NCBI GenBank assembly: GCA_037140115.1
Contig: JBAXFB010000001.1
Coordinates: 1-40,650, forward strand
Origin: a bacterium
Lineage (GTDB): Bacteria > Patescibacteriota > Minisyncoccia > Phycocordibacterales > UBA9973
DNA length: 40,650 nt
Direction of reading: 5' to 3'
Below, piece after piece: positions 26,795 to 37,293 of the stretch (its first letter is position 1; every line of letters starts with the position of its first letter). A model generated the notes under the pieces. That model made no database searches, was not told where the DNA came from, and saw only the letters and a program-made list of their open reading frames with translations. Both the position numbers and the translations under genes were made by a program.

Positions 26795-27214
26795 ATGAAA
26801 AAAATATTTAAATATCTTTATTTTTTATTACTAGTATTGTTTTATCCAAGCCTTTCACTGGCAACTAACTTAACGCCTGCAGGAGATACTTGTGAGCTTG
26901 GGACTACCGGGGTGACTTTTAGCTTACTCGTAAAATTTTTTATATGTAACATAAATACAGCCATAATACCTTTAATTTTCGTTCTTGCGTTCCTTATGTT
27001 CGTCTGGGGTGTAGTGAAATTCACCTTGAACAGTAGCGAAGAAATAAAAAAGGAAGAGGGGAGACAATTTATGCTTTGGGGTGTTGTAGGGTTAACAGTT
27101 ATGGTGTGCGTATGGGGGCTTGTTGGTATACTAGCCAACACCTTTCATGTTAACGTAAGGGTTATTCCACAGGTGCAGACTCCGGCTACAACAACACCTC
27201 CTACCACTCCTTAA
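26795..27214 (+). CDS. VirB2/TrbC-like pilin paralog 3
   Basis: Signal peptide (SLSLAT), two Cys, two TM helices with linker NSSEEIKKEEGRQ and motif MLWGVVGLTVMVCVWGLVGILANTF. Confidence 0.55.
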   Translation: MKKIFKYLYFLLLVLFYPSLSLATNLTPAGDTCELGTTGVTFSLLVKFFICNINTAIIPLIFVLAFLMFVWGVVKFTLNSSEEIKKEEGRQFMLWGVVGLTVMVCVWGLVGILANTFHVNVRVIPQVQTPATTTPPTTP

Positions 27215-27327
27215 GTTAATCCCCAGTTGCTTTTGCTTTTAAATATCCTTGTAGTATAATTATCAGTATTATTATTTAAGGTCGTTTTAATTATTAGAAA
27301 TTATTAATAACGTTTCTAGAAAATTAT

Positions 27328-27777
27328 ATGAAAAAGAAATTAGGTGTTTTATTTATGGTTTTTGGTTTGTTGATTAGTGTTGCAGCTCCTATGGCAGCAT
27401 TTGCTGTTACTACTCCTGCTGGTACTGGTACTGGTAATGGTTCTTGTTCTATTACAACTACCGATATAACTGGTGGTGCGTTGAATGGTGGTACAGACTG
27501 GGATTTAAGAGCGGTGATCTGTAGAATAGAAGGTATATTGAGTTCACTGGTTCCTCTTTTGATGATCTTTGGATTTCTTTACTTCATTTGGGGAGTTATC
27601 TCTTATGTTATCGCTGGTGATGAAGAAGCTAAGACAGCAGGTAGAGACAGAATCATCTACGGAGTTATTGGATTCACAGCTATCGTTACACTTTGGGGAT
27701 TGGTAGCAATCTTGGCAAACACATTCAACATAAACAAAGCAGTCACTGTGACTCTTCCAGTCATTACCAGTCATTAA
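27328..27777 (+). CDS. VirB2/TrbC-like pilin paralog 4
   Basis: Signal peptide (MAAFAV), two Cys, linker AGDEEAKTAGRDR, motif IIYGVIGFTAIVTLWGLVAILANTF (nearly the same tail as paralog 3). Confidence 0.55.
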   Translation: MKKKLGVLFMVFGLLISVAAPMAAFAVTTPAGTGTGNGSCSITTTDITGGALNGGTDWDLRAVICRIEGILSSLVPLLMIFGFLYFIWGVISYVIAGDEEAKTAGRDRIIYGVIGFTAIVTLWGLVAILANTFNINKAVTVTLPVITSH

Positions 27778-27816
27778 CAGTGTACAATGAAACTAAGATT
27801 CTTAAATATTGATTAA

Positions 27817-28140
27817 ATGGAATTTTTTTCTACAAAGGTAGCCTATGCAAGTATAGATACTTTTCTTGGAAAAGTTGAAACCCAGATCGTCAACCCTATC
27901 ATCGTCTTACTTTTTGCTCTAGCGTTAATGTACTTTCTTTATGGAGTTTTTGAATTCATAATGAACAGTGCTAACGACGAAAAGAAGACCACTGGTAAGG
28001 AACATATGCTTTGGGGGGTTATAGGTTTGACTATCATGCTTGGGGTTTGGTTTATTCTAGGAGTCGTATTGGATACATTCAATATTCCTAGAAACCAGAT
28101 TGATCCTGAGCATGGCAAGGTCAACTTACCTGTAAAGTAG
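27817..28140 (+). CDS. VirB2/TrbC-like pilin paralog 5 (no Cys pair)
   Basis: Two TM helices with linker NSANDEKKTTGKEH and motif MLWGVIGLTIMLGVWFILGVVLDTF. Confidence 0.5.
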   Translation: MEFFSTKVAYASIDTFLGKVETQIVNPIIVLLFALALMYFLYGVFEFIMNSANDEKKTTGKEHMLWGVIGLTIMLGVWFILGVVLDTFNIPRNQIDPEHGKVNLPVK

Positions 28141-28164
28141 CAAAAGTTATTGAAATAGAAAATA

Positions 28165-28194
28165 AAAGACCCTAGCTTTGGCTAGGGTCTTTTA
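28165..28194. terminator. Bidirectional terminator
   Basis: AAAAGACCCTAGC-tttg-GCTAGGGTCTTTT between convergent genes. Confidence 0.8.
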
Positions 28195-28197
28195 TTT

Positions 28198-28644
28198 TTA
28201 ACTATGCTTTAGGGGAGATGAATGATATTTGTCTTCTGCACCATAAGCCTTTCTGACTAGGACCACGATGGCTAAGATAAGTATCGCTAAGATCAACCAT
28301 TGGATTAAGCCTGAAGGCAAGAAGCTGTTTGAGCCAAAGATCGCTGCAGCTCCAAGGTTTGTACCAGCGTTATTATTGTAAGTAGGTTCTACTGGGACTG
28401 ATTTCGCATCAGTGTTGGAAATAATGTTTGGAATAAATGTTGCTGGTGCAGAAGGCGCAATGTCAGGTGTTGTGGCCATACTTATACCTCCACTTGATAT
28501 AGAAGTAGCAGGGCCAGCACAGTTAGCTGCTAATACACTGTTCAAAGGAGTGAAAAGTAAGCCAGAAGCCATAATTAATAACATTCCCAAGTTCAAAACT
28601 ATTGATTTGTTATTTGTATTACTCATATAAAGATAGTATAGCAT
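28198..28644 (-). CDS. Secreted low-complexity protein with C-terminal TM anchor
   Basis: N-terminal signal-like helix, Ala/Ser/Pro/Asn-rich middle region, C-terminal helix LIQWLILAILILAIVVLV followed by basic residues. Confidence 0.55.
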   Translation of the reverse strand: MLYYLYMSNTNNKSIVLNLGMLLIMASGLLFTPLNSVLAANCAGPATSISSGGISMATTPDIAPSAPATFIPNIISNTDAKSVPVEPTYNNNAGTNLGAAAIFGSNSFLPSGLIQWLILAILILAIVVLVRKAYGAEDKYHSSPLKHS

Positions 28645-28716
28645 ATATGAGTCTCATTGTCAAGTGTAAAAATAAGCCACATTTTATAGCCTATTTTAGG
28701 CTAATTTGATGTTGTG

Positions 28717-28798
28717 TGGGCAAGGGGGGACTCGAACCCCCAAGTCTTGCGACATTAGTTCCTAAGACTAACGCGTATACCAATTCCGCCACTTGCCC
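28717..28798 (-). tRNA. tRNA-Leu (anticodon UAG), type II with long variable arm
   Basis: The reverse complement folds as GGGCAAG/CTTGCCC acceptor, anticodon loop CTTAGGA, variable arm TGTCGCAAGACTT, T-arm GGGGG-TTCGAGT-CCCCC. Confidence 0.93.
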
Positions 28799-30738: not shown

Positions 30739-32049
30739 ATGATAAAGTCGGTAAGCATAAAAAACTTCAGAAGTATAGAAAACCAGAAGGTTGAACTTAC
30801 GCCTATAGTTTTTATTTATGGTAATAATGCGGCTGGTAAGTCGTCTTTATTCTATTCTTTTAATATTCTTAGAAACATAGTATCTAACCCAAACCAGCCG
30901 ATAGATAGTTTTTTTAGTTTAGGTTTTGCAAACCTTGGTAGTTTTAAAAAGGTTGTAACCAAACATGATGAAACAAAGACAATCACAATTTCTATAGATG
31001 GTTTGGTGGGTAAGGTAAATTTTACATATGGAGTCAAAATCAATCCAAAAAGGAGTGAATTTTTCTTGCATCTAGATAAACCTTATTCTTTAGAATTTTC
31101 TTTGCCAGTTACTTTTCCTTATCCACTTAACTTGAATGTTGAAAATCCTGTTACTTTTGATGATGTAGAATATAAAATAAACTGGAATGGAGTAACTGCG
31201 CAAGTAAGTTCAACAATTGCGACTCCCACCGACAGTTCAAATAAAAAGATAAGAGAGATTACTTTTTTATTGAACAAAATTGCAGAACTTATTCGTTCCG
31301 TTGATTTGGTTTCTGTTAGAAGAGGTTTTTTTGAACCCCAATATGGAGCTGTCAACATTACTCAATTTCCCATAAAAGAAGAAGAAGTTGCTTCAGTTCT
31401 GGCTGTGGATGAAAATCTTGATCATCAAGTTAATTCTTACTTAGAACAAATGATAGGGCGTCAATTTAGAGCTAAACCCAAATTAGGTACTTCTCTTGCT
31501 GAATTAACTACTATTGACCCAGAAGCAAAAATAAATTCCGATGTAGTTAATGATGGTTTTGGAGTTAACCAATTGGTATTCGTTTTAGCAAAGATGTTAA
31601 ATAAAAGTATACATACTGTATGCCTAGAAGAACCAGAATCTAACTTACACCCAGGGGCAGTTAGAAAACTTCCACAATCATTTATTGAAATAGCAAAAAA
31701 AGAAAATAAGCAATTAATTATTACAACCCACAGCGAGGCCTTAATTATTGCAATGCTTTCTGCTGTGGCAAAAGGTGAGGTTGCAAAAGAAGATGTGAGT
31801 TTTTACTTAACGCTAAGACAATCTGATACTGGTATTACATCTTTTGAAAAACAAGAAGTTTCAGAAGAAGGAGAAATACCAGGTGGTCTTAAAAGTTTTA
31901 TGGCTGGAGAACTTGAGGACATAAAAGGATTTTTTAAATCAAAACGAGGTAAGAAAAATGTAGAAAAAATGGTAGATGATAATACTCAAATTGCACATCA
32001 AGATTCAACAGAGAATCAAAATACAATTGAAAAACCATTGGAGCAATAA
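30739..32049 (+). CDS. ABC/AAA15-AAA21-type ATPase (OLD/Gabija GajA/PARIS AriA/Septu PtuA-like ATPase architecture)
   Basis: N-terminus SIKNFRSI plus Walker A GNNAAGKSS. C-terminal NDGFGVNQL (signature-like), Walker B VCLEEPESNLHP, H-loop ITTHS. TATACT at 30726-30731 lies 7 nt before the ATG. Confidence 0.8.
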   Translation: MIKSVSIKNFRSIENQKVELTPIVFIYGNNAAGKSSLFYSFNILRNIVSNPNQPIDSFFSLGFANLGSFKKVVTKHDETKTITISIDGLVGKVNFTYGVKINPKRSEFFLHLDKPYSLEFSLPVTFPYPLNLNVENPVTFDDVEYKINWNGVTAQVSSTIATPTDSSNKKIREITFLLNKIAELIRSVDLVSVRRGFFEPQYGAVNITQFPIKEEEVASVLAVDENLDHQVNSYLEQMIGRQFRAKPKLGTSLAELTTIDPEAKINSDVVNDGFGVNQLVFVLAKMLNKSIHTVCLEEPESNLHPGAVRKLPQSFIEIAKKENKQLIITTHSEALIIAMLSAVAKGEVAKEDVSFYLTLRQSDTGITSFEKQEVSEEGEIPGGLKSFMAGELEDIKGFFKSKRGKKNVEKMVDDNTQIAHQDSTENQNTIEKPLEQ

Positions 32050-32057
32050 ACATTTTT

Positions 32058-32558
32058 ATGTCAGTTCCTATTATTGTAGATGAATGGCTATTTGAAGACT
32101 TAGCTGGTAAAAATGGTGCAGATAAACAAAGCCAAGCTGTACAATTTTTGTATAAGCTTGAAGAAATTTGTGATCGAATTGTTGTTTTAGAGGGAAGTCC
32201 TTTTGAGAAAAAAATGCATGATCTTATGGGGAGCACAAATGATTCTTGTCGTTTTAGAGCAGCTAGAAGTGTTTTCATTGAACTTATAAGTAGCAACTCC
32301 TTGAAGAAGTGTTTTATTGCCAAGGAAGACATAAGTGCTTTGCCTGATGATGTTATAAAACTTATTCACAAAATAAATCCTTCCTCAACAAAAGACCACT
32401 ACTTATTCCAAGCCCACCAAAAACTAAAACATAAAGATTGTTTTATCTTAACTAGCGATGGTCGCTGGGAAAATGAAAAATTAAAGAAAAAAGGTTTTCG
32501 GATTGTAATGAAAGATTCTTTTATTACTCAATATTTGGAACGTGAGATTTCTAATTAG
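32058..32558 (+). CDS. Hypothetical 166-aa partner protein, PIN-like acidic-residue pattern (possible nuclease effector)
   Basis: Starts 9 nt after the ATPase stop. PIIVDEWLFEDL (N-terminal Asp), LEEICD, KDHYLFQAH, FILTSDGRW give a D...E...D...D spacing like PIN-fold domains. Assignment is by eye only. Confidence 0.4.
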   Translation: MSVPIIVDEWLFEDLAGKNGADKQSQAVQFLYKLEEICDRIVVLEGSPFEKKMHDLMGSTNDSCRFRAARSVFIELISSNSLKKCFIAKEDISALPDDVIKLIHKINPSSTKDHYLFQAHQKLKHKDCFILTSDGRWENEKLKKKGFRIVMKDSFITQYLEREISN

Positions 32559-32703
32559 GTTCTTTGATTTTTGCAAAAGTTAAAAACAGTCTAGCATACG
32601 AGTCAAGATATTCATTGGCAGTTTCTTTAGATATGTCTAAGTTGTGTTCTTCTTTAAAGTTTTTAATGAGTTCTTCTATCAGTTTGTCGCTATACTGGTG
32701 CAT
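32551..32703 (-). CDS. Small ORF a, 50 aa: MHQYSDKLIEELIKNFKEEHNLDISKETANEYLDSYARLFLTFAKIKEPN
   Basis: Not in the ORF track (under 60 aa). 24 of 49 ungapped identities with the adjacent small ORF b. Its stop overlaps the convergent 32058-32558 stop in the palindrome CTAATTAG. Confidence 0.55.
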   Translation of the reverse strand: MHQYSDKLIEELIKNFKEEHNLDISKETANEYLDSYARLFLTFAKIKEPN

Positions 32704-32709
32704 AAAAAT

Positions 32710-32859
32710 TTATTTTTCTTTAGATTCAGCAAATACAGCAAACATTCCTCCTAGGGAGTCTAAATATTCAACAGCAGTTTCTTCATTGACATGATGATTA
32801 TATCTTTTAGTAAAATAGATAATTATTCTTTGTATAAGTTTGTCGCTATATTTATGCAT
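32710..32859 (-). CDS. Small ORF b, 49 aa: MHKYSDKLIQRIIIYFTKRYNHHVNEETAVEYLDSLGGMFAVFAESKEK
   Basis: Not in the ORF track. The ATG overlaps the DUF2726 gene stop (ATGCATAA), which suggests translational coupling. Paralog of ORF a. Confidence 0.55.
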   Translation of the reverse strand: MHKYSDKLIQRIIIYFTKRYNHHVNEETAVEYLDSLGGMFAVFAESKEK

Positions 32860-33328
32860 GAAGTTTTTCTTTTATTCTAGTTATTGATTGAGCAAAATCA
32901 GTTCCAACTTTAACCGTCTCAAAAGGTAGTCCTGCATCCTCAAAAATTTGCTTTTTTATAGAATCTTTTTGTTCTTGTCTTGGACTATTATGATAACCAC
33001 CATTCACTTCTATGGCGACCACAGGCTTAAAATAATAATCACAAATTAAAAAGTCTATATGTTTCGGTAAAACACTATTTCTCATGTGATAGTAGCCTCT
33101 ACCGCTTTTAGTTTCTATGATGTCAGCGATACGCATCTTTGGAAAAATATGATAGCCCTGAGGTAATTGTTTTTGTAGTTCAAAGAAGAAAGCAGATTCA
33201 GTGCTATTCATTACGCTTGATCGCTTTTTGTAAATGCTATCTTTCCTTGCGTCAGTTCTGGGTTGTTTCAAATACGGTACTAGAAAAACAGCAAGCAATA
33301 CAACTACAATAAAAAATATTATTACCAT
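32852..33328 (-). CDS. Membrane-anchored DUF2726-like (restriction-endonuclease-fold) protein
   Basis: N-terminal TM helix, then STESAFFFELQKQLPQGYHIFPKMRIADII...HIDFLICD...VVAIEVNGGYH...RQEQKDSIKKQIFEDAGLPF. This matches the DUF2726 pattern (D...E.x nuclease core) as I recall it. Confidence 0.7.
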   Translation of the reverse strand: MVIIFFIVVVLLAVFLVPYLKQPRTDARKDSIYKKRSSVMNSTESAFFFELQKQLPQGYHIFPKMRIADIIETKSGRGYYHMRNSVLPKHIDFLICDYYFKPVVAIEVNGGYHNSPRQEQKDSIKKQIFEDAGLPFETVKVGTDFAQSITRIKEKLHA

Positions 33329-33558: not shown

Positions 33559-34359
33559 ATGGATAAGTTTATAGATGTTATTAAATCTCATTATGAAATG
33601 GCTCTCAAAAGTGGCACAGGACTCCCTTTCTATAGTGATGTTAATCACTATCTTTTTTACATAATCAAAACTCCCAAACTCTACGCTATTATCACAGACG
33701 AATATGCAAAATTAAAAAATGAATTAAAGGAAATTAAAGAGAATCCTTTTTTATCGTCTTCGGCAGAAGAAGACATTTTAGACCAAACAAAAAAAATTTC
33801 ACTATATACAGATTATATAGTCTTATATAAAGCAATCTATCTTCCTTTTCAAGCGAACGACAACGAATCCATTCTCAGCGAAGAAAATTCAAAAGCCCTT
33901 TTCTATCTAGGTGGCATTGAAAAGGTTCCTGAAAAAGAACGCTCATTTTGGCAAGATTCATTCGCCTCACACTTTGAAAGAAATAAAAAACATTTTACTA
34001 ATTTACATTTTAAACTGTTAGAGATTTTGGAAACAAAAAATAAGGAATTAGTTGTAAAAAATAAAGATTTTGATTTTGATGTTAATACTGGTCAATTTAG
34101 ATATTTTAAAACAAAGGGCACTTTTTCTCCTAAAAAGAAAGAATTTAAATTCTTAAAAACACTTTATTTTAAAAATAGCCACCAAGCTACTTACGCAGAG
34201 CTATCTGATGTTGATCAAGCTTCCAGAAACGACAAAATTAAATTAACTGAGACTGTTAGAAATGTAAAAACCAAACTAGGTATTCTTTCAAAGACTAAAC
34301 ACAAAAATAAAGATATTATAAAAACCGTTTCAGGATATGGTTATGAATTAGATATCTAG
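33559..34359 (+). CDS. Hypothetical protein with C-terminal OmpR/CadC-type winged-helix DNA-binding domain
   Basis: The C-terminus KKEFKFLKTLYF...ATYAEL...LTETVRNVKTKLGI...IIKTVSGYGYELDI fits the trans_reg_C pattern (EF..L, V...V..LR.KL, I.TV.G.GY.L). No receiver domain. Confidence 0.55.
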   Translation: MDKFIDVIKSHYEMALKSGTGLPFYSDVNHYLFYIIKTPKLYAIITDEYAKLKNELKEIKENPFLSSSAEEDILDQTKKISLYTDYIVLYKAIYLPFQANDNESILSEENSKALFYLGGIEKVPEKERSFWQDSFASHFERNKKHFTNLHFKLLEILETKNKELVVKNKDFDFDVNTGQFRYFKTKGTFSPKKKEFKFLKTLYFKNSHQATYAELSDVDQASRNDKIKLTETVRNVKTKLGILSKTKHKNKDIIKTVSGYGYELDI

Positions 34360-34552: not shown

Positions 34553-35323
34553 ATGGGTTACAGCAAAACTATTATTAGTGGAAATAATTTAGAAAGAACT
34601 GACTATGAAAAAGACGTCATCAGTTTGGGAAGAAGCACAGGAAACAGGAAGACTACTCCTGCAACTGAGAATATGGGAACTAGCGGAAAAGATACACTTT
34701 CGGAAAGGGACAGTGCCACAACATTGGGGAAGCGACGAGACAACGCACAACGCTCTAGTGTGGCTTTCCGAAGGATCGTTGCATCTAACCTCGGAGGACT
34801 TACACGCCCTCTACTGGTTACTCTTACCTACCGAGATAATTTCACAGACCTTAAAGGAAGCTATAAGCATTTCTCATCTTTTATCCAATCTCTACGCTAT
34901 AAATTCGGAAAAGATTTTAAATACATCAGTGTCCCAGAATTTCAAAAGCGTGGAGCAGTTCATTTTCACGCTCTCTTCTGGGGGTTACCCGAGGGAATAT
35001 TTTTACAAGAACGGAAAACTAGAACACTTGCCGAACTTTGGGCAAGGGGTTTTGTTTATTTAAAAGAAACTGACGGCAATGAAAAATTATCTTTTTATTT
35101 ATCAAAATATATGGCAAAAGCATTCATAGACCCAAGACTAAAAAATCAGAAATGCTATGTTGCTTCTCGTAACATTCAAAGACCAACAGTTATTGTCGGT
35201 GCTTCTCCTCTTTGGGTTATTCTTGAGGATTATGGAATTACTGACGAGCCATTAATTGATAGAGAATATCCGACAAAATATTTAGGCAAAGGTCGGTATA
35301 GGTTATTTAAAATTCCAAAATGA
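34553..35323 (+). CDS. HUH-superfamily rolling-circle replication initiator (two-tyrosine type, phiX174 gpA / Microviridae VP4-like motifs)
   Basis: Motif 1 LVTLTY, motif 2 (HUH) GAVHFHALFWG, motif 3 YLSKYMAK (Y-x-x-K-Y-x-x-K, two catalytic Tyr spaced as in phiX174 gpA YVAKYVNK). Confidence 0.75.
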   Translation: MGYSKTIISGNNLERTDYEKDVISLGRSTGNRKTTPATENMGTSGKDTLSERDSATTLGKRRDNAQRSSVAFRRIVASNLGGLTRPLLVTLTYRDNFTDLKGSYKHFSSFIQSLRYKFGKDFKYISVPEFQKRGAVHFHALFWGLPEGIFLQERKTRTLAELWARGFVYLKETDGNEKLSFYLSKYMAKAFIDPRLKNQKCYVASRNIQRPTVIVGASPLWVILEDYGITDEPLIDREYPTKYLGKGRYRLFKIPK

Positions 35324-35505
35324 TCAGCCTTGAAGACCTAAAAAGAATAGAGCCTAAACTTCAAGGGAAGTCTGACGAGGAATTAACAAAAATCCGTAAT
35401 TTATTATATGGTTTAGGTCAATTAACTTTGGAAACATATTTAGAAAGAAAAAGTGGTTCCAAATTTCCCGTTGGGGTATATGGACTTAATAATGAGGATA
35501 TGTAA
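35320..35505 (+). CDS. Hypothetical 61-aa protein
   Basis: ATGA overlap with the Rep stop. No motif recognised. Confidence 0.4.
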   Translation: MISLEDLKRIEPKLQGKSDEELTKIRNLLYGLGQLTLETYLERKSGSKFPVGVYGLNNEDM

Positions 35506-35509
35506 AAGT

Positions 35510-37057
35510 ATGGATATGCAAGAAAACAAAAATGCAATAATCTATGTCCGTGTGTCTTCTAGTGAACAAGTAGACGGCACAAGCTTAGAATCTCAAGAAA
35601 GATTTTGCAAAGAATACGCTCAAAAAGAAAACTTAAATATTCTTTCAATTTTCATTGAAAAAGGTGAATCGGCTAAAACTGCTGACCGCACGGAATTTAT
35701 AAAAGCCATTAGTTTTTGCTCCGATAAGAAAAACAAAGTTAGCTATTTTATTGTTGCTAAAATTGATCGTTTTTCTAGGAACCAAACCGACTATGCTATA
35801 GTCAAACAAAAACTACAAAAGTATGGAACGGAAATCAGATCAGTCTCGGAAAAAATTGACGATACGCCATCGGGTAAGTTGATGGAAGTTATGCTCTCTG
35901 GCTTTGCTGAATTTGATAACAACATCAGAACTGAAAGAAGTGTTAATGGTATGAAAGAACGCTTAAAACAGGGCGTATGGGTCTGGCAAGCTCCTCTAGG
36001 CTACTATCGGACTGAAAAGGGTGGAAATATCACTCCTGACCCTAAAACCGCTCCGTTTATAAAAATGGTGTTTGAAGAATATGCTAAGGGAACTTACACT
36101 TTTGAATCTTTAGCTAGGTTCTTAAAAGAAAAAGGTTTTGTTTCTCGCTATGGTAGAACTGTAATTTCCCAGACGATAGAAAAAATAATCAAGAATCCAA
36201 TTTACTGCGGAATAATTAAAGTTTGGGATAATGAAAGCAAAGGAACTTTTAAACCGATTATCAGTGAGAATCTTTTTTACCTTTGCCAAAAAGACGGCAG
36301 AAGGGATAGGGGTAAATTACACTTCGTAAAGAACCCCGATTTTCCACTTAGGAATTTAGCCACTTGCCAATTTTGTGGCGATCCTTTAACTGGTAGTCAT
36401 TCAACAGGGCGTAAAGGCAAACGCTATCCATATTACCACCACCATAAAGTTAATTGTGATTATGCAAAGTCTATTCCTAAAGAAAATTTTGAGCAGATAT
36501 TTGTTGAATATTTGAATGAAATAAATCCTAGTATTGAATATGAAAAAGCTTTCAAAGCTATCGTTATTGATATTTGGAAAAATAACTGTAAGGGTTTTAA
36601 CAATCAGAACGAGGCTCTTAGAAAAGAAATTAAAGAACTGGAAAATAGTAAGCAACATATTTTTGATTTACACCAAAGTGGTGTTTATGACGACACTGAT
36701 TTCACTACTCAGAAAAATATTGTCTGTAAAAAGATTGCTCAAAAAGAAAGTTTAATTCACGACAAAAGAATCCAAGAATTTAATATGGAAGAAGCCTTAG
36801 AATTTTGTTTTGATACAGTTCGCCATAGTGCAAGGTCTTGGGTTGAATACGAGAAAGAACCTGAGAAAAGAATCCGATTCCAAAATTTTATATTTGAGGA
36901 AAATCTGCCTTATGCTGAAAACAAATTTGGAACCGCAAAGTTAACGCCTATTTACAGCGTATATCAACAATACTTAGTGAATCCATCTAACTTGGTGCGT
37001 CCAGCAGGGATCGAACCTGCGACCTTATCCTTAAGAGGGATCTGCTCTACCAGCTGA
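35510..37057 (+). CDS. Large serine recombinase (integrase)
   Basis: AIIYVRVSSSEQ (catalytic Ser), IVAKIDRFSRN, recombinase domain, zinc-ribbon-like CQFCGDPLTGSHS...YYHH, coiled-coil C-terminus. The start is chosen after the stop of the 61-aa ORF (the track start 35453 overlaps it). The last ~21 codons are antisense to tRNA-Lys. Confidence 0.85.
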   Translation: MDMQENKNAIIYVRVSSSEQVDGTSLESQERFCKEYAQKENLNILSIFIEKGESAKTADRTEFIKAISFCSDKKNKVSYFIVAKIDRFSRNQTDYAIVKQKLQKYGTEIRSVSEKIDDTPSGKLMEVMLSGFAEFDNNIRTERSVNGMKERLKQGVWVWQAPLGYYRTEKGGNITPDPKTAPFIKMVFEEYAKGTYTFESLARFLKEKGFVSRYGRTVISQTIEKIIKNPIYCGIIKVWDNESKGTFKPIISENLFYLCQKDGRRDRGKLHFVKNPDFPLRNLATCQFCGDPLTGSHSTGRKGKRYPYYHHHKVNCDYAKSIPKENFEQIFVEYLNEINPSIEYEKAFKAIVIDIWKNNCKGFNNQNEALRKEIKELENSKQHIFDLHQSGVYDDTDFTTQKNIVCKKIAQKESLIHDKRIQEFNMEEALEFCFDTVRHSARSWVEYEKEPEKRIRFQNFIFEENLPYAENKFGTAKLTPIYSVYQQYLVNPSNLVRPAGIEPATLSLRGICSTS

Positions 37058-37068
37058 GCTATGGACGC
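36993..37068 (-). tRNA. tRNA-Lys (anticodon CUU), CCA encoded
   Basis: Reverse complement GCGTCCA-TA-GCTC-AGCTGGTA-GAGC-A-GATCC-CTCTTAA-GGATA-AGGTC-GCAGG-TTCGATC-CCTGC-TGGACGC-A-CCA. Confidence 0.93.
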
Positions 37069-37083
37069 GTGTATTAAGTTGTG

Positions 37084-37167
37084 TGCCCGAGGTGGGAATC
37101 GAACCCACATGACCTTGCGGTCGGGAAATTTTAAGTCTCCTGCGGCTACCAATTACGCCACTCGGGC
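37084..37167 (-). tRNA. tRNA-Leu (anticodon UAA), type II
   Basis: Reverse complement GCCCGAG...anticodon loop CTTAAAA...variable arm CGACCGCAAGGTCAT...GTGGG-TTCGATT-CCCAC-CTCGGGC-A. Confidence 0.93.
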
Positions 37168-37194
37168 ATTTCTACCCAAAACCATTCTACCATT

Positions 37195-37220
37195 AAAAAA
37201 TCAAAAATGTTTGATTTTTT
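37195..37220. terminator. AT-rich palindromic hairpin between tRNA-Cys and tRNA-Leu
   Basis: AAAAAATCAAA-aatg-TTTGATTTTTT. Confidence 0.35.
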
Positions 37221-37221
37221 G

Positions 37222-37293
37222 AGGCCTGGGGCGGAATCGAACCGCCGTATATTCCTTTTGCAGAGGAATGCCTTACCACTTGGCTACCAGGCC
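37222..37293 (-). tRNA. tRNA-Cys (anticodon GCA)
   Basis: Reverse complement GGCCTGG-TA-GCC-AAGTGGTAA-GGC-A-TTCCT-CTGCAAA-AGGAA-TATAC-GGCGG-TTCGATT-CCGCC-CCAGGCC-T. Confidence 0.93.

Follow-up and report, generated by a model that had tools for sequence, protein, structure and literature searches.

A Two-Gene Operon Encoding an ABC ATPase and a PIN-Like Protein in an Uncultured Patescibacteriota Bacterium: A Divergent Branch of a Known Design

Introduction

Pairings of an ATP-binding cassette (ABC) ATPase with a PIN protein have been described before. HEC-03 (Hma-embedded candidate 03; Payne et al. 2024) consists of two genes, an ABC ATPase and a VapC-like PIN; it protects E. coli from phages, requires both genes to do so, and is toxic when induced (bioRxiv 10.1101/2024.01.29.577857). 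In Menshen (NsnA-NsnB-NsnC; Millman et al. 2022), the DUF3696 tail of the ATPase NsnB is the predicted docking site for a PIN-like domain at the N-terminus of NsnC, and AlphaFold3 (AF3) models have two such tails gripping this domain (PMC12065111). These inPIN domains are reported to lack the catalytic residues and are thought to be inactive (PMC12065111). Septu and PARIS rely on a dimer of the ABC ATPase to hold one nuclease, which is controlled by conformational change or release (PMC12065111). Pairs of an OLD-ABC ATPase and a PIN endoRNase were also catalogued computationally in a 2026 survey (PMC12839542), while the Menshen paper mentions neither HEC-03 nor two-gene relatives (PMC12065111). 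Here we describe a pair of adjacent genes of this type in the window, a 40,650-nucleotide (nt) stretch of contig JBAXFB010000001.1 (assembly GCA_037140115.1; Patescibacteriota, UBA9973), and compare it with these systems.

The pair encodes a 436-amino-acid (aa) ATPase followed by a 166-aa PIN-like protein. We consider it reasonably likely that the pair is a self-contained operon that moves horizontally and belongs to the "ABC ATPase plus nuclease" defense class. This reading starts from the anatomy, homology, and synteny of the pair, all of which were directly observed.

Results

Gene Order across Genomes

Both open reading frames (ORFs) were found where a preliminary description of this DNA had placed them (Table 1). 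They share one orientation, with the TAA stop codon of the ATPase gene at 32047-32049 and the ATG of the PIN-like gene at 32058, leaving a spacer of 8 nt rather than the nine first given. No terminator-like site was seen between the two ORFs in a terminator scan; the promoter and terminator scan was itself uninformative, as its counts did not rise above those in shuffled sequence.

The ATPase gene preceded the PIN-like gene in 21 of 21 independent loci, starting from either gene. The window, L001-L015, and the viral contig L084 were reached from the ATPase, and L113-L116 from the PIN-like protein. A genome scan built on the small-protein alignment proved unworkable, as no stretch was conserved enough, and the ATPase alignment was used instead. 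Every locus with a family-level ATPase (>200 bits) had a PIN-like gene directly downstream, overlapping it or separated by at most ~12 nt. From the PIN side, members only ~30% identical were included (L113-L116), and all had an AAA_15 ATPase directly upstream. The proposal that the two genes would be syntenic in other genomes is borne out by these loci. Clustering of all flanking ORFs disclosed no conserved third gene across the loci. The DUF2726 gene and the gene for a 266-aa protein, both neighbors of the pair in the window, were considered as a third component and rejected, neither being conserved in any other locus.

The pair loci come from Chloroflexota, Spirochaetota, Ignavibacteriae, Nitrospirae, Acidobacteria, and Bacteroidota, and the source names of ATPase homologs add Patescibacteria, Saccharimonadales, Armatimonadota, Bathyarchaeota, and Nitrososphaerales. 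Cousin ATPase clades also carry a PIN-fold gene in the same position: the partner at locus L024 is a bona fide Pfam PIN (41.5 bits), the partners in the c2 group (defined below) are homologs of the window family, and the partners at HEC-03-type loci are PINs with "VIDTNV...DRK...CDTDW" motifs.

A pseudogenized copy was observed in a cultured organism with a complete genome, the chromosome of Paraflavitalea speifideaquila (NZ_CP135920.1; L014:6001-7657), where the ATPase gene and the PIN-like gene are each broken into two ORFs by frameshifts.

The ABC ATPase

The 436-aa protein passed the Pfam thresholds of AAA_15 (71.7 bits, 1e-19; cut-off 32.1) and AAA_21 (63.8 bits, 4e-17; cut-off 27). Its best PADLOC match was Menshen NsnB (111 bits, residues 1-381), followed by AbiLi, AriA, and the HEC-03 ATPase model. 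The AlphaFold2 (AF2) model had a mean predicted local distance difference test score (pLDDT) of 90.2, and its top Foldseek matches were the OLD nuclease 6p74, Rad50, SMC heads, PtuA, and GajA (E = 2e-12 to 1e-9), the structures of PtuA (from Septu and retron systems) and GajA matching at E ~1e-10 to 1e-11. In agreement with one another, these searches uphold the earlier assignment of the protein to the OLD/AAA_15-type ATPases of the Gabija, PARIS, and Septu kind.

All the ATPase motifs quoted in the preliminary description were present, and they were invariant or nearly so in an alignment of 55 homologs (Table 1). In the signature-like motif, Asn-271, Gly-273, and Gly-275 were invariant, and Asp-272, Phe-274, Asn-277, and Gln-278 were at least 90% conserved; in the Walker B and D-loop region, Glu-297, Glu-298, Pro-299, Glu-300, Leu-303, His-304, and Pro-305 were invariant. 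Judged by these motifs, the protein is a catalytically intact ABC ATPase of the OLD/SMC type.

The DUF3696 tail that characterizes NsnB was not detected by Pfam in the window ATPase; the C-terminal tail nevertheless aligns with DUF3696 by profile comparison. Specifically, hhalign of the window ATPase family profile against the DUF3696-bearing HEC-03-type ATPase of L031 gave a full-length alignment that included the DUF3696 tail (probability 99.8%, E = 5e-28). By analogy with the AF3 models of NsnB-NsnC (PMC12065111), this tail (residues ~345-402) could serve as the docking site for the PIN protein.

To place the ATPase, we built a bootstrapped neighbor-joining tree, in which the window ATPase family was monophyletic with 100% bootstrap support. 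The NsnB and HEC-03 types formed a clade (90%), as did a Dehalococcoidia group that we call c2 (89%). The window family, NsnB, HEC-03, and c2 clades lay together, far from the Gabija-like and DUF3226-linked outgroups, and the window ATPase thus belongs to a super-clade with Menshen NsnB and the HEC-03 ATPase. The deep branching order among the window-family, NsnB/HEC-03, and c2 clades was poorly supported. More distant genomic ATPases, which carry Pfam DUF3696, reached 190-220 bits with NsnB or 280-305 bits with the HEC-03 ATPase model.

The PIN-Like Protein

Searches of Pfam, PADLOC v2, and NCBIfam with the 166-aa protein returned no match, in line with the earlier remark that no domain could be named in it. 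Its AF2 model (pLDDT 84.2, predicted template modeling score (pTM) 0.78) shows alternating strands and helices, and the top 20 Foldseek matches in the PDB were all PIN proteins or PIN-containing chains (probability 0.87-1.0, E = 2e-3 to 2e-2, TM 0.37-0.55). Among these were VapC toxins, PAE2754 (1V8O), the exosome Rrp44 PIN, a Thermus domain, and archaeal PINs, with HARP RNase P and FitB ranked lower. Against the viral structures of BFVD, the top named match was a PIN domain-containing protein (rank 2), and a PIN_53EXO protein stood at rank 5.

A word-indexed search with the protein found 8 relatives only, and an exhaustive profile search found at least 356 clusters at 50% identity with E <=1e-3, 207 of them with E <=1e-10. 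The best 150 clusters listed were nearly all standalone proteins of 140-180 aa. We assessed conservation over 138 diverse relatives, 21-66% identical to the window protein. Only PIN_9 (12 members) and PIN_3 (7 members) recurred when these relatives were searched against Pfam, all below threshold (best E = 0.0075), and a PDB sequence-profile search with the family alignment gave one spurious match only (E = 0.16). By hhalign, the family profile matched that of the c2 partners (probability 97.7%, E = 1.5e-12), one of which weakly matches PF01850 and so provides an indirect link to PIN. The corresponding comparisons with the L024 PIN partner, a single sequence, and with the HEC-03-type PINs (E = 0.16) were not significant. 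The small-protein family is undetectable with the existing profiles of Pfam, NCBIfam, and PADLOC v2.

The model and the alignment of relatives together place the conserved residues at positions equivalent to PIN motifs I, III, and IV (Table 1). Position 8 is Asp in 93 members and Asn in 45; Glu-9 is Glu in 131 and Asp in 6 (99% acidic), and Trp-10 is found in 137. Asp-113 is present in all 138 members and Tyr-115 in 134. Position 132 is Thr or Ser in 137 members, and Asp-134 is likewise retained in 137. Outside these motifs, Asp-39, before strand 2, is 91% conserved, and Lys-52, in the helix after strand 2, is 100% conserved. The full D-E-D-D set (Asp-8, Glu-50, Asp-113, Asp-134) is invariant in the window protein's own 8-member subfamily, while across the family position 50 is Glu in 19% and acidic (Asp or Glu) in 28%. 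Since Glu-50 is restricted to the close subfamily and the helix instead carries the invariant Lys-52, the active site appears atypical, and it is probably functional.

Structure prediction, Foldseek, and the alignment of relatives thus support the view, put forward in the preliminary description, that the small protein is PIN-like with conserved acidic residues, and they predict it to be a divergent, minimal PIN-fold protein. Three of the four motifs quoted there (IIVDEW, KDHYLF, and ILTSDGRW) are conserved; the fourth, LEE, is not, Glu-35 and Glu-36 being variable.

Genomic Surroundings and Mobility

The pair had been placed in an accessory region between tRNA genes, near a DUF2726 gene and an integrated element. 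This description fits the tRNA genes, the DUF2726 gene, the Rep protein, and the recombinase found here (Table 1), together with a fall in G+C content to 0.31-0.35 over 30-37 kb of the window. The remainder of the contig is chromosomal (SecA, Mur ligases, S1, GyrA, IF-2), and the gene upstream of the ATPase is a divergently oriented membrane protein gene without a Pfam match. The large serine recombinase and the tRNA-Lys gene that it abuts are likely the integrase and the attachment site of the element carrying the pair. Attachment-type (att) direct repeats delimiting the integrated element were not found in the window, and neither was its left boundary. A lack of such repeats is expected for serine recombinases, and the position of the pair inside the element is one that we infer from the low G+C content and the parallel with L084.

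Table 1. Positions in the window of the gene pair, its motifs, and neighboring features.
Feature	Position	Strand	Description
ATPase gene	30739..32049	+	ORF, 436 aa, OLD/SMC-type ABC ATPase, AAA_15/AAA_21
Walker A / P-loop, GNNAAGKSS	30820..30846	+	Residues 28-36; G28, G33, K34, S35 invariant (55 homologs)
ABC signature-like motif, NDGFGVNQ	31549..31572	+	Residues 271-278; GxG variant of SGG, as in NsnB
Walker B and D-loop region, VCLEEPESNLHP	31618..31653	+	Residues 294-305; E-E replaces the usual D-E
H-loop, TTHS	31723..31734	+	Residues 329-332; H331, S332 invariant, T330 at least 90% (55 homologs)
C-terminal tail	31771..31944	+	Residues ~345-402; predicted beta-hairpin and helix (AF2 model); divergent DUF3696-like module
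PIN-like protein gene	32058..32558	+	ORF, 166 aa, putative nuclease effector
PIN motif I equivalent, D8-E9-W10	32079..32087	+	Directly after strand beta-1; aligns with LDENV of cousin PIN-like proteins
PIN motif III equivalent, D113-x-Y115	32394..32402	+	N-terminus of helix 114-126, as D-x-Y-L
PIN motif IV equivalent, T132-S133-D134	32451..32459	+	After strand beta-4 (129-132); canonical T-x-D
tRNA-Leu	28716-28798		
DUF2726 gene	32852-33328		Pfam 5e-24
266-aa protein	33559-34359	+	Weak winged-helix (Trans_reg_C) signal at C-terminus only
Rep protein	34553-35323	+	REP_ORF2-G2P/RepSA-like rolling-circle-type replication initiator, 7e-21
Large serine recombinase	35453-37057	+	Pfam Resolvase, Recombinase, Zn_ribbon_recom
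tRNA cluster	36993-37293		Three tRNAs
tRNA-Lys	36993-37068	-	Abuts large serine recombinase

The neighbors of the pair differ between loci. The window itself has DUF2726, Rep, serine recombinase, and tRNA-Lys genes. On the IMG/VR contig L084 the type I restriction-modification genes HsdS and HsdM come before the pair, which is followed by a serine recombinase and tRNA-Lys; this order of cargo, pair, recombinase, and tRNA-Lys is the one found in the window. A serine recombinase, a relaxase, and type IV coupling proteins surround the pair at L113 and L114; AbiEi/AbiEii and insertion sequence (IS) elements at L001; a Gabija-like OLD-TOPRIM protein and UvrD at L003; a type IIG restriction-modification enzyme and an SNF2/PLD helicase at L009; and a second AAA_15 plus DUF3226 pair at L007. 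The neighbors at L004, L005/L006, L008, and L012 are housekeeping genes. The ATPase had no match among PLSDB plasmids or GenBank phages, the small protein had none in PLSDB, and the IMG/VR search gave one close match. The picture is that of a mobile two-gene cassette, often carried by integrative or conjugative elements or located in defense islands, although not always.

Several further observations concern these surroundings. The element in the window encodes both the Rep initiator and the 266-aa protein. At three loci, the ORF of a large serine recombinase reads into or abuts an antisense tRNA gene: tRNA-Lys in the window (35453-37068) and at L084:6113-7960, and tRNA-Ile at L001:507-1511. 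This suggests a class of tRNA-targeting integrative elements with serine recombinases; in their N-terminal domains, the recombinases of the window and of L084 are only 24% identical. At L007:4126-5816, a 360-aa AAA_15 ATPase and a DUF3226 protein (3e-30) lie directly upstream of the ATPase-PIN pair, placing two different ABC ATPase pairs in tandem.

Within the window, a 50-aa ORF (32551-32703, minus strand) runs convergent to the PIN-like gene and overlaps its 3' end by 8 nt. This candidate gene has a weak CENP-X match and otherwise matches no family. The first ~66 nt of its region (32655-32720) are repeated with 71% identity 156 nt downstream, at 32811-32876, where the second copy overlaps the 3' end of the DUF2726 gene. 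Just upstream of the tRNA-Leu gene, at 26795-28644, four small predicted membrane proteins (107-149 aa; three on the plus strand, one on the minus) have similar hydrophobic cores and may be pilin-like or TrbC-like paralogs.

Discussion

Proposed Function and Alternative Explanations

The part that we propose for the pair in defense, together with its complex, its trigger, and its RNA target, is drawn by analogy with HEC-03, the Menshen models, PARIS, and Septu. In the model, the ATPase would oligomerize and its C-terminal tails would keep the PIN protein inactive. A phage-derived cue could then alter ATP binding or hydrolysis, upon which the PIN nuclease would be released or activated. The nuclease might then cleave RNA, with tRNA, rRNA, or mRNA the most likely substrates, as for VapC-type PINs, and thereby stop the infection or the cell. 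On balance, we think it rather probable that an ATPase oligomer sequesters the PIN nuclease in this manner and activates or releases it for RNA cleavage upon infection.

Several points weigh against a defense pair with an active nuclease. The Foldseek matches to PIN structures are consistent yet weak (E from ~2e-3, TM 0.45-0.55), and no Pfam PIN model rises above threshold for the family. The motif I Asp is replaced by Asn in 45 of the 138 members, and Glu-50, the canonical second acidic residue, is kept only in the close subfamily, with the invariant Lys-52 in the same helix. The PIN-like domains of Menshen are themselves thought to be inactive (PMC12065111). About half of the informative loci lie among housekeeping rather than defense genes. 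Finally, the host is an uncultured bacterium represented by a metagenome-assembled genome only, and the pair is known from its sequence alone.

The two genes could instead be an addiction module resembling a toxin-antitoxin (TA) system, in which a VapC-like PIN toxin is countered by the ATPase as antitoxin or chaperone, and which stabilizes its carrier integrative or conjugative element rather than acting against phages. PIN proteins are the classic VapC toxins, the toxicity of induced HEC-03 points the same way, and Pfam labels AAA_21 as "putative AbiEii toxin, Type IV TA system"; the pair also often has serine recombinases, relaxases, coupling proteins, and IS elements as neighbors. Nonetheless, we judge this unlikely. 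A large ATPase gene followed by the PIN gene, and an ATPase of 436 aa, are unlike VapB-VapC, and many copies reside among chromosomal housekeeping genes with no mobile element nearby. As addiction and abortive-infection defense are not mutually exclusive, this explanation overlaps with the defense operon that we favor.

That NsnB is the best PADLOC match of the ATPase raises another possibility, that the small protein is a PIN-like adaptor without catalytic activity. The pair would in that case be a sensor or scaffold with its effector encoded elsewhere, or else the remnant of a Menshen system that has lost NsnA and the nuclease domain of NsnC. The N-terminal PIN-like domains of Menshen NsnC are indeed predicted to bind the ATPase tail and are reported to lack catalytic residues (PMC12065111), the motif I Asp is Asn in one third of the members, and the canonical Glu is not kept family-wide. 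On the other hand, Glu-9, Asp-113, Thr-132, and Asp-134 are at least 99% conserved over the 138 sequences, which fits an active site and is unlike the inPINs; the standalone proteins of ~150 aa form at least 356 clusters; the ATPase clade is monophyletic and apart from NsnB; and the sole clearly decayed copy, L014, is frameshifted in both genes. With intact pairs at 21 of 21 loci, no NsnA, and no conserved third gene, the arrangement does not reflect decay, and descent by loss from Menshen was rejected; a dead adaptor as a whole seems quite improbable.

A housekeeping role, with a Rad50/SMC-like ATPase and a FEN/PIN-type nuclease serving DNA repair or RNA processing and no conflict with mobile elements, is very improbable. 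In its favor, Rad50 and SMC heads are also among the structural matches of the ATPase model, enzymes of the FEN and PRORP/HARP types count among the PIN-like folds, and several loci have housekeeping flanks. Against it, the pair is scattered patchily over unrelated phyla of bacteria and archaea, in a manner suggestive of horizontal transfer, and each locus has flanks of its own. The window pair lies in a low-G+C segment adjoining an integrase, and a viral contig from IMG/VR carries one copy. The ATPase lacks both a coiled-coil insertion and a partner of the Mre11 type, and its nearest characterized relatives are all defense ATPases.

Returning to the defense operon, we offer a broader and more tentative scheme, which may well prove wrong in part or whole. 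An ABC ATPase with a DUF3696-type tail plus a PIN protein could be an ancient and widespread core module that has branched into the window family, the pairs of c2 and of archaea, HEC-03, and Menshen. The window family would then represent the minimal state, with one small PIN acting both as docking piece and as active nuclease, and the inactive PIN of Menshen would be a leftover docking domain to which toxins were fused later. The window family might accordingly be a distinct, uncatalogued defense system that responds to a trigger and attacks an RNA target of its own. It is common among uncultured lineages, Patescibacteria and archaea included, for which few defense systems are known.

If the pair is active, it would add a widespread branch of ABC ATPase-nuclease systems that current tools miss; its bacterial and archaeal members form at least 356 clusters (50% identity), and its PIN component escapes PADLOC v2, Pfam, and NCBIfam alike. 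At ~1.8 kb and two proteins, it could serve as a minimal model for the control of a PIN nuclease by a DUF3696-tailed ABC ATPase, and it would offer a testable account of the origin of the inactive PIN docking domain of Menshen. It adds no new mechanistic category, as an ATPase sensor or regulator combined with a nuclease effector is established and HEC-03 has validated the ATPase-plus-PIN case.

Comparison with Known Systems

HEC-03 resembles the window pair in having two genes, one for an OLD-type ABC ATPase and one for a small PIN of ~160-180 aa that stands alone. In the HEC-03-type loci examined, the ATPase gene is likewise first and the PIN gene directly after it, and homology between the ATPases extends along the entire protein, C-terminal tail included. 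In contrast, the window ATPase reaches only 78 bits on the HEC-03 ATPase model (PDLC04148), in two partial stretches, compared with ~280-305 bits over the full length for members; it falls in a separate clade (100% bootstrap), and Pfam DUF3696 is undetected in it. The window PIN does not match the HEC-03 PIN model (PADLOC, E <=0.1), profile comparison is not significant (E = 0.16), and motif I reads D-T-N in HEC-03 and D/N-E-W in the window PIN family. At the HEC-03-type loci examined there is, in addition, an RNA ligase gene, which is absent at the window locus.

This ligase gene deserves separate mention. In four unrelated genomes with HEC-03-type loci, a conserved third gene lies directly after the PIN gene (L031:6982-7677, L027:6955-7734, L032:3020-3742, and L043:6941-7657), the L031 copy being Pfam RNA_ligase (PF09414, 5e-34). 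The HEC-03 paper describes two genes and mentions no ligase (bioRxiv 10.1101/2024.01.29.577857). The combination of a nuclease with an RNA ligase at these loci hints at a damage-and-repair logic. The component names in PADLOC-DB v2 (PDLC04147/PDLC04148) are also swapped relative to the paper, which gives the name HEC-03A to the ATPase and HEC-03B to the PIN; in the database, the "HEC-03B" model (458 positions) matches ATPases and "HEC-03A" (159 positions) matches PINs.

Menshen shares with the window pair its ATPase type, NsnB being the best PADLOC match at 111 bits over nearly the full length. Both have the signature GxG in place of SGG, as reported for NsnB (PMC12065111), and an Arg at the position of the Q-loop Gln, the NsnB side of this comparison being taken from the paper's description (PMC12065111). 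Nevertheless, the score of the window ATPase is about half that of NsnB-type ATPases (190-220 bits), and its Walker B reads E-E where NsnB has E-N. An NsnA (ParB/DUF262) gene is absent from the window and from the 21 loci, and a Pfam search found no DUF262 among the scanned island genes of the window. The partner in the window family is PIN-only (~150-166 aa); it lacks a C-terminal effector domain, does not match NsnC, and keeps the acidic residues that are missing in the inPINs.

PARIS (AriA/AriB), Septu (PtuA/PtuB), and Gabija (GajA/GajB) likewise combine an OLD-type ABC ATPase (AAA_15/AAA_21) with a nuclease effector that it regulates, and the window ATPase weakly matches the AriA, GajA, and PtuA PADLOC models. 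Their effectors differ, being TOPRIM/DUF4435 in AriB, HNH in PtuB, and a fused TOPRIM plus the UvrD helicase in Gabija; DUF4435-TOPRIM, HNH, and TOPRIM plus UvrD domains were found in neither window protein nor in the adjacent genes. As for type II toxin-antitoxin systems of the VapBC kind, the nearest solved structures of the small protein are VapC toxins and related archaeal PINs. The window pair differs from VapBC in having no VapB-like antitoxin gene, in the ABC ATPase of the 436-aa type upstream of the PIN at all 21 loci, and in a PIN that lacks a Pfam match above threshold and has atypical motifs (D/N-E-W and the invariant Lys-52).

The preliminary description had held that an AAA15-type ATPase paired with a minimal PIN-like protein was not a named system. 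This claim of novelty falls, because HEC-03 has been validated, the link between Menshen NsnB and a PIN-like domain has been described, and OLD-ABC plus PIN pairs have been listed (PMC12839542). The related expectation that the pair would match no named system holds at the level of membership, as the pair does not qualify as a member of either HEC-03 or Menshen, but not at the level of architecture, which was already known. The window pair is therefore an undescribed, divergent branch of the known ABC ATPase plus PIN design, and not a new kind of system.

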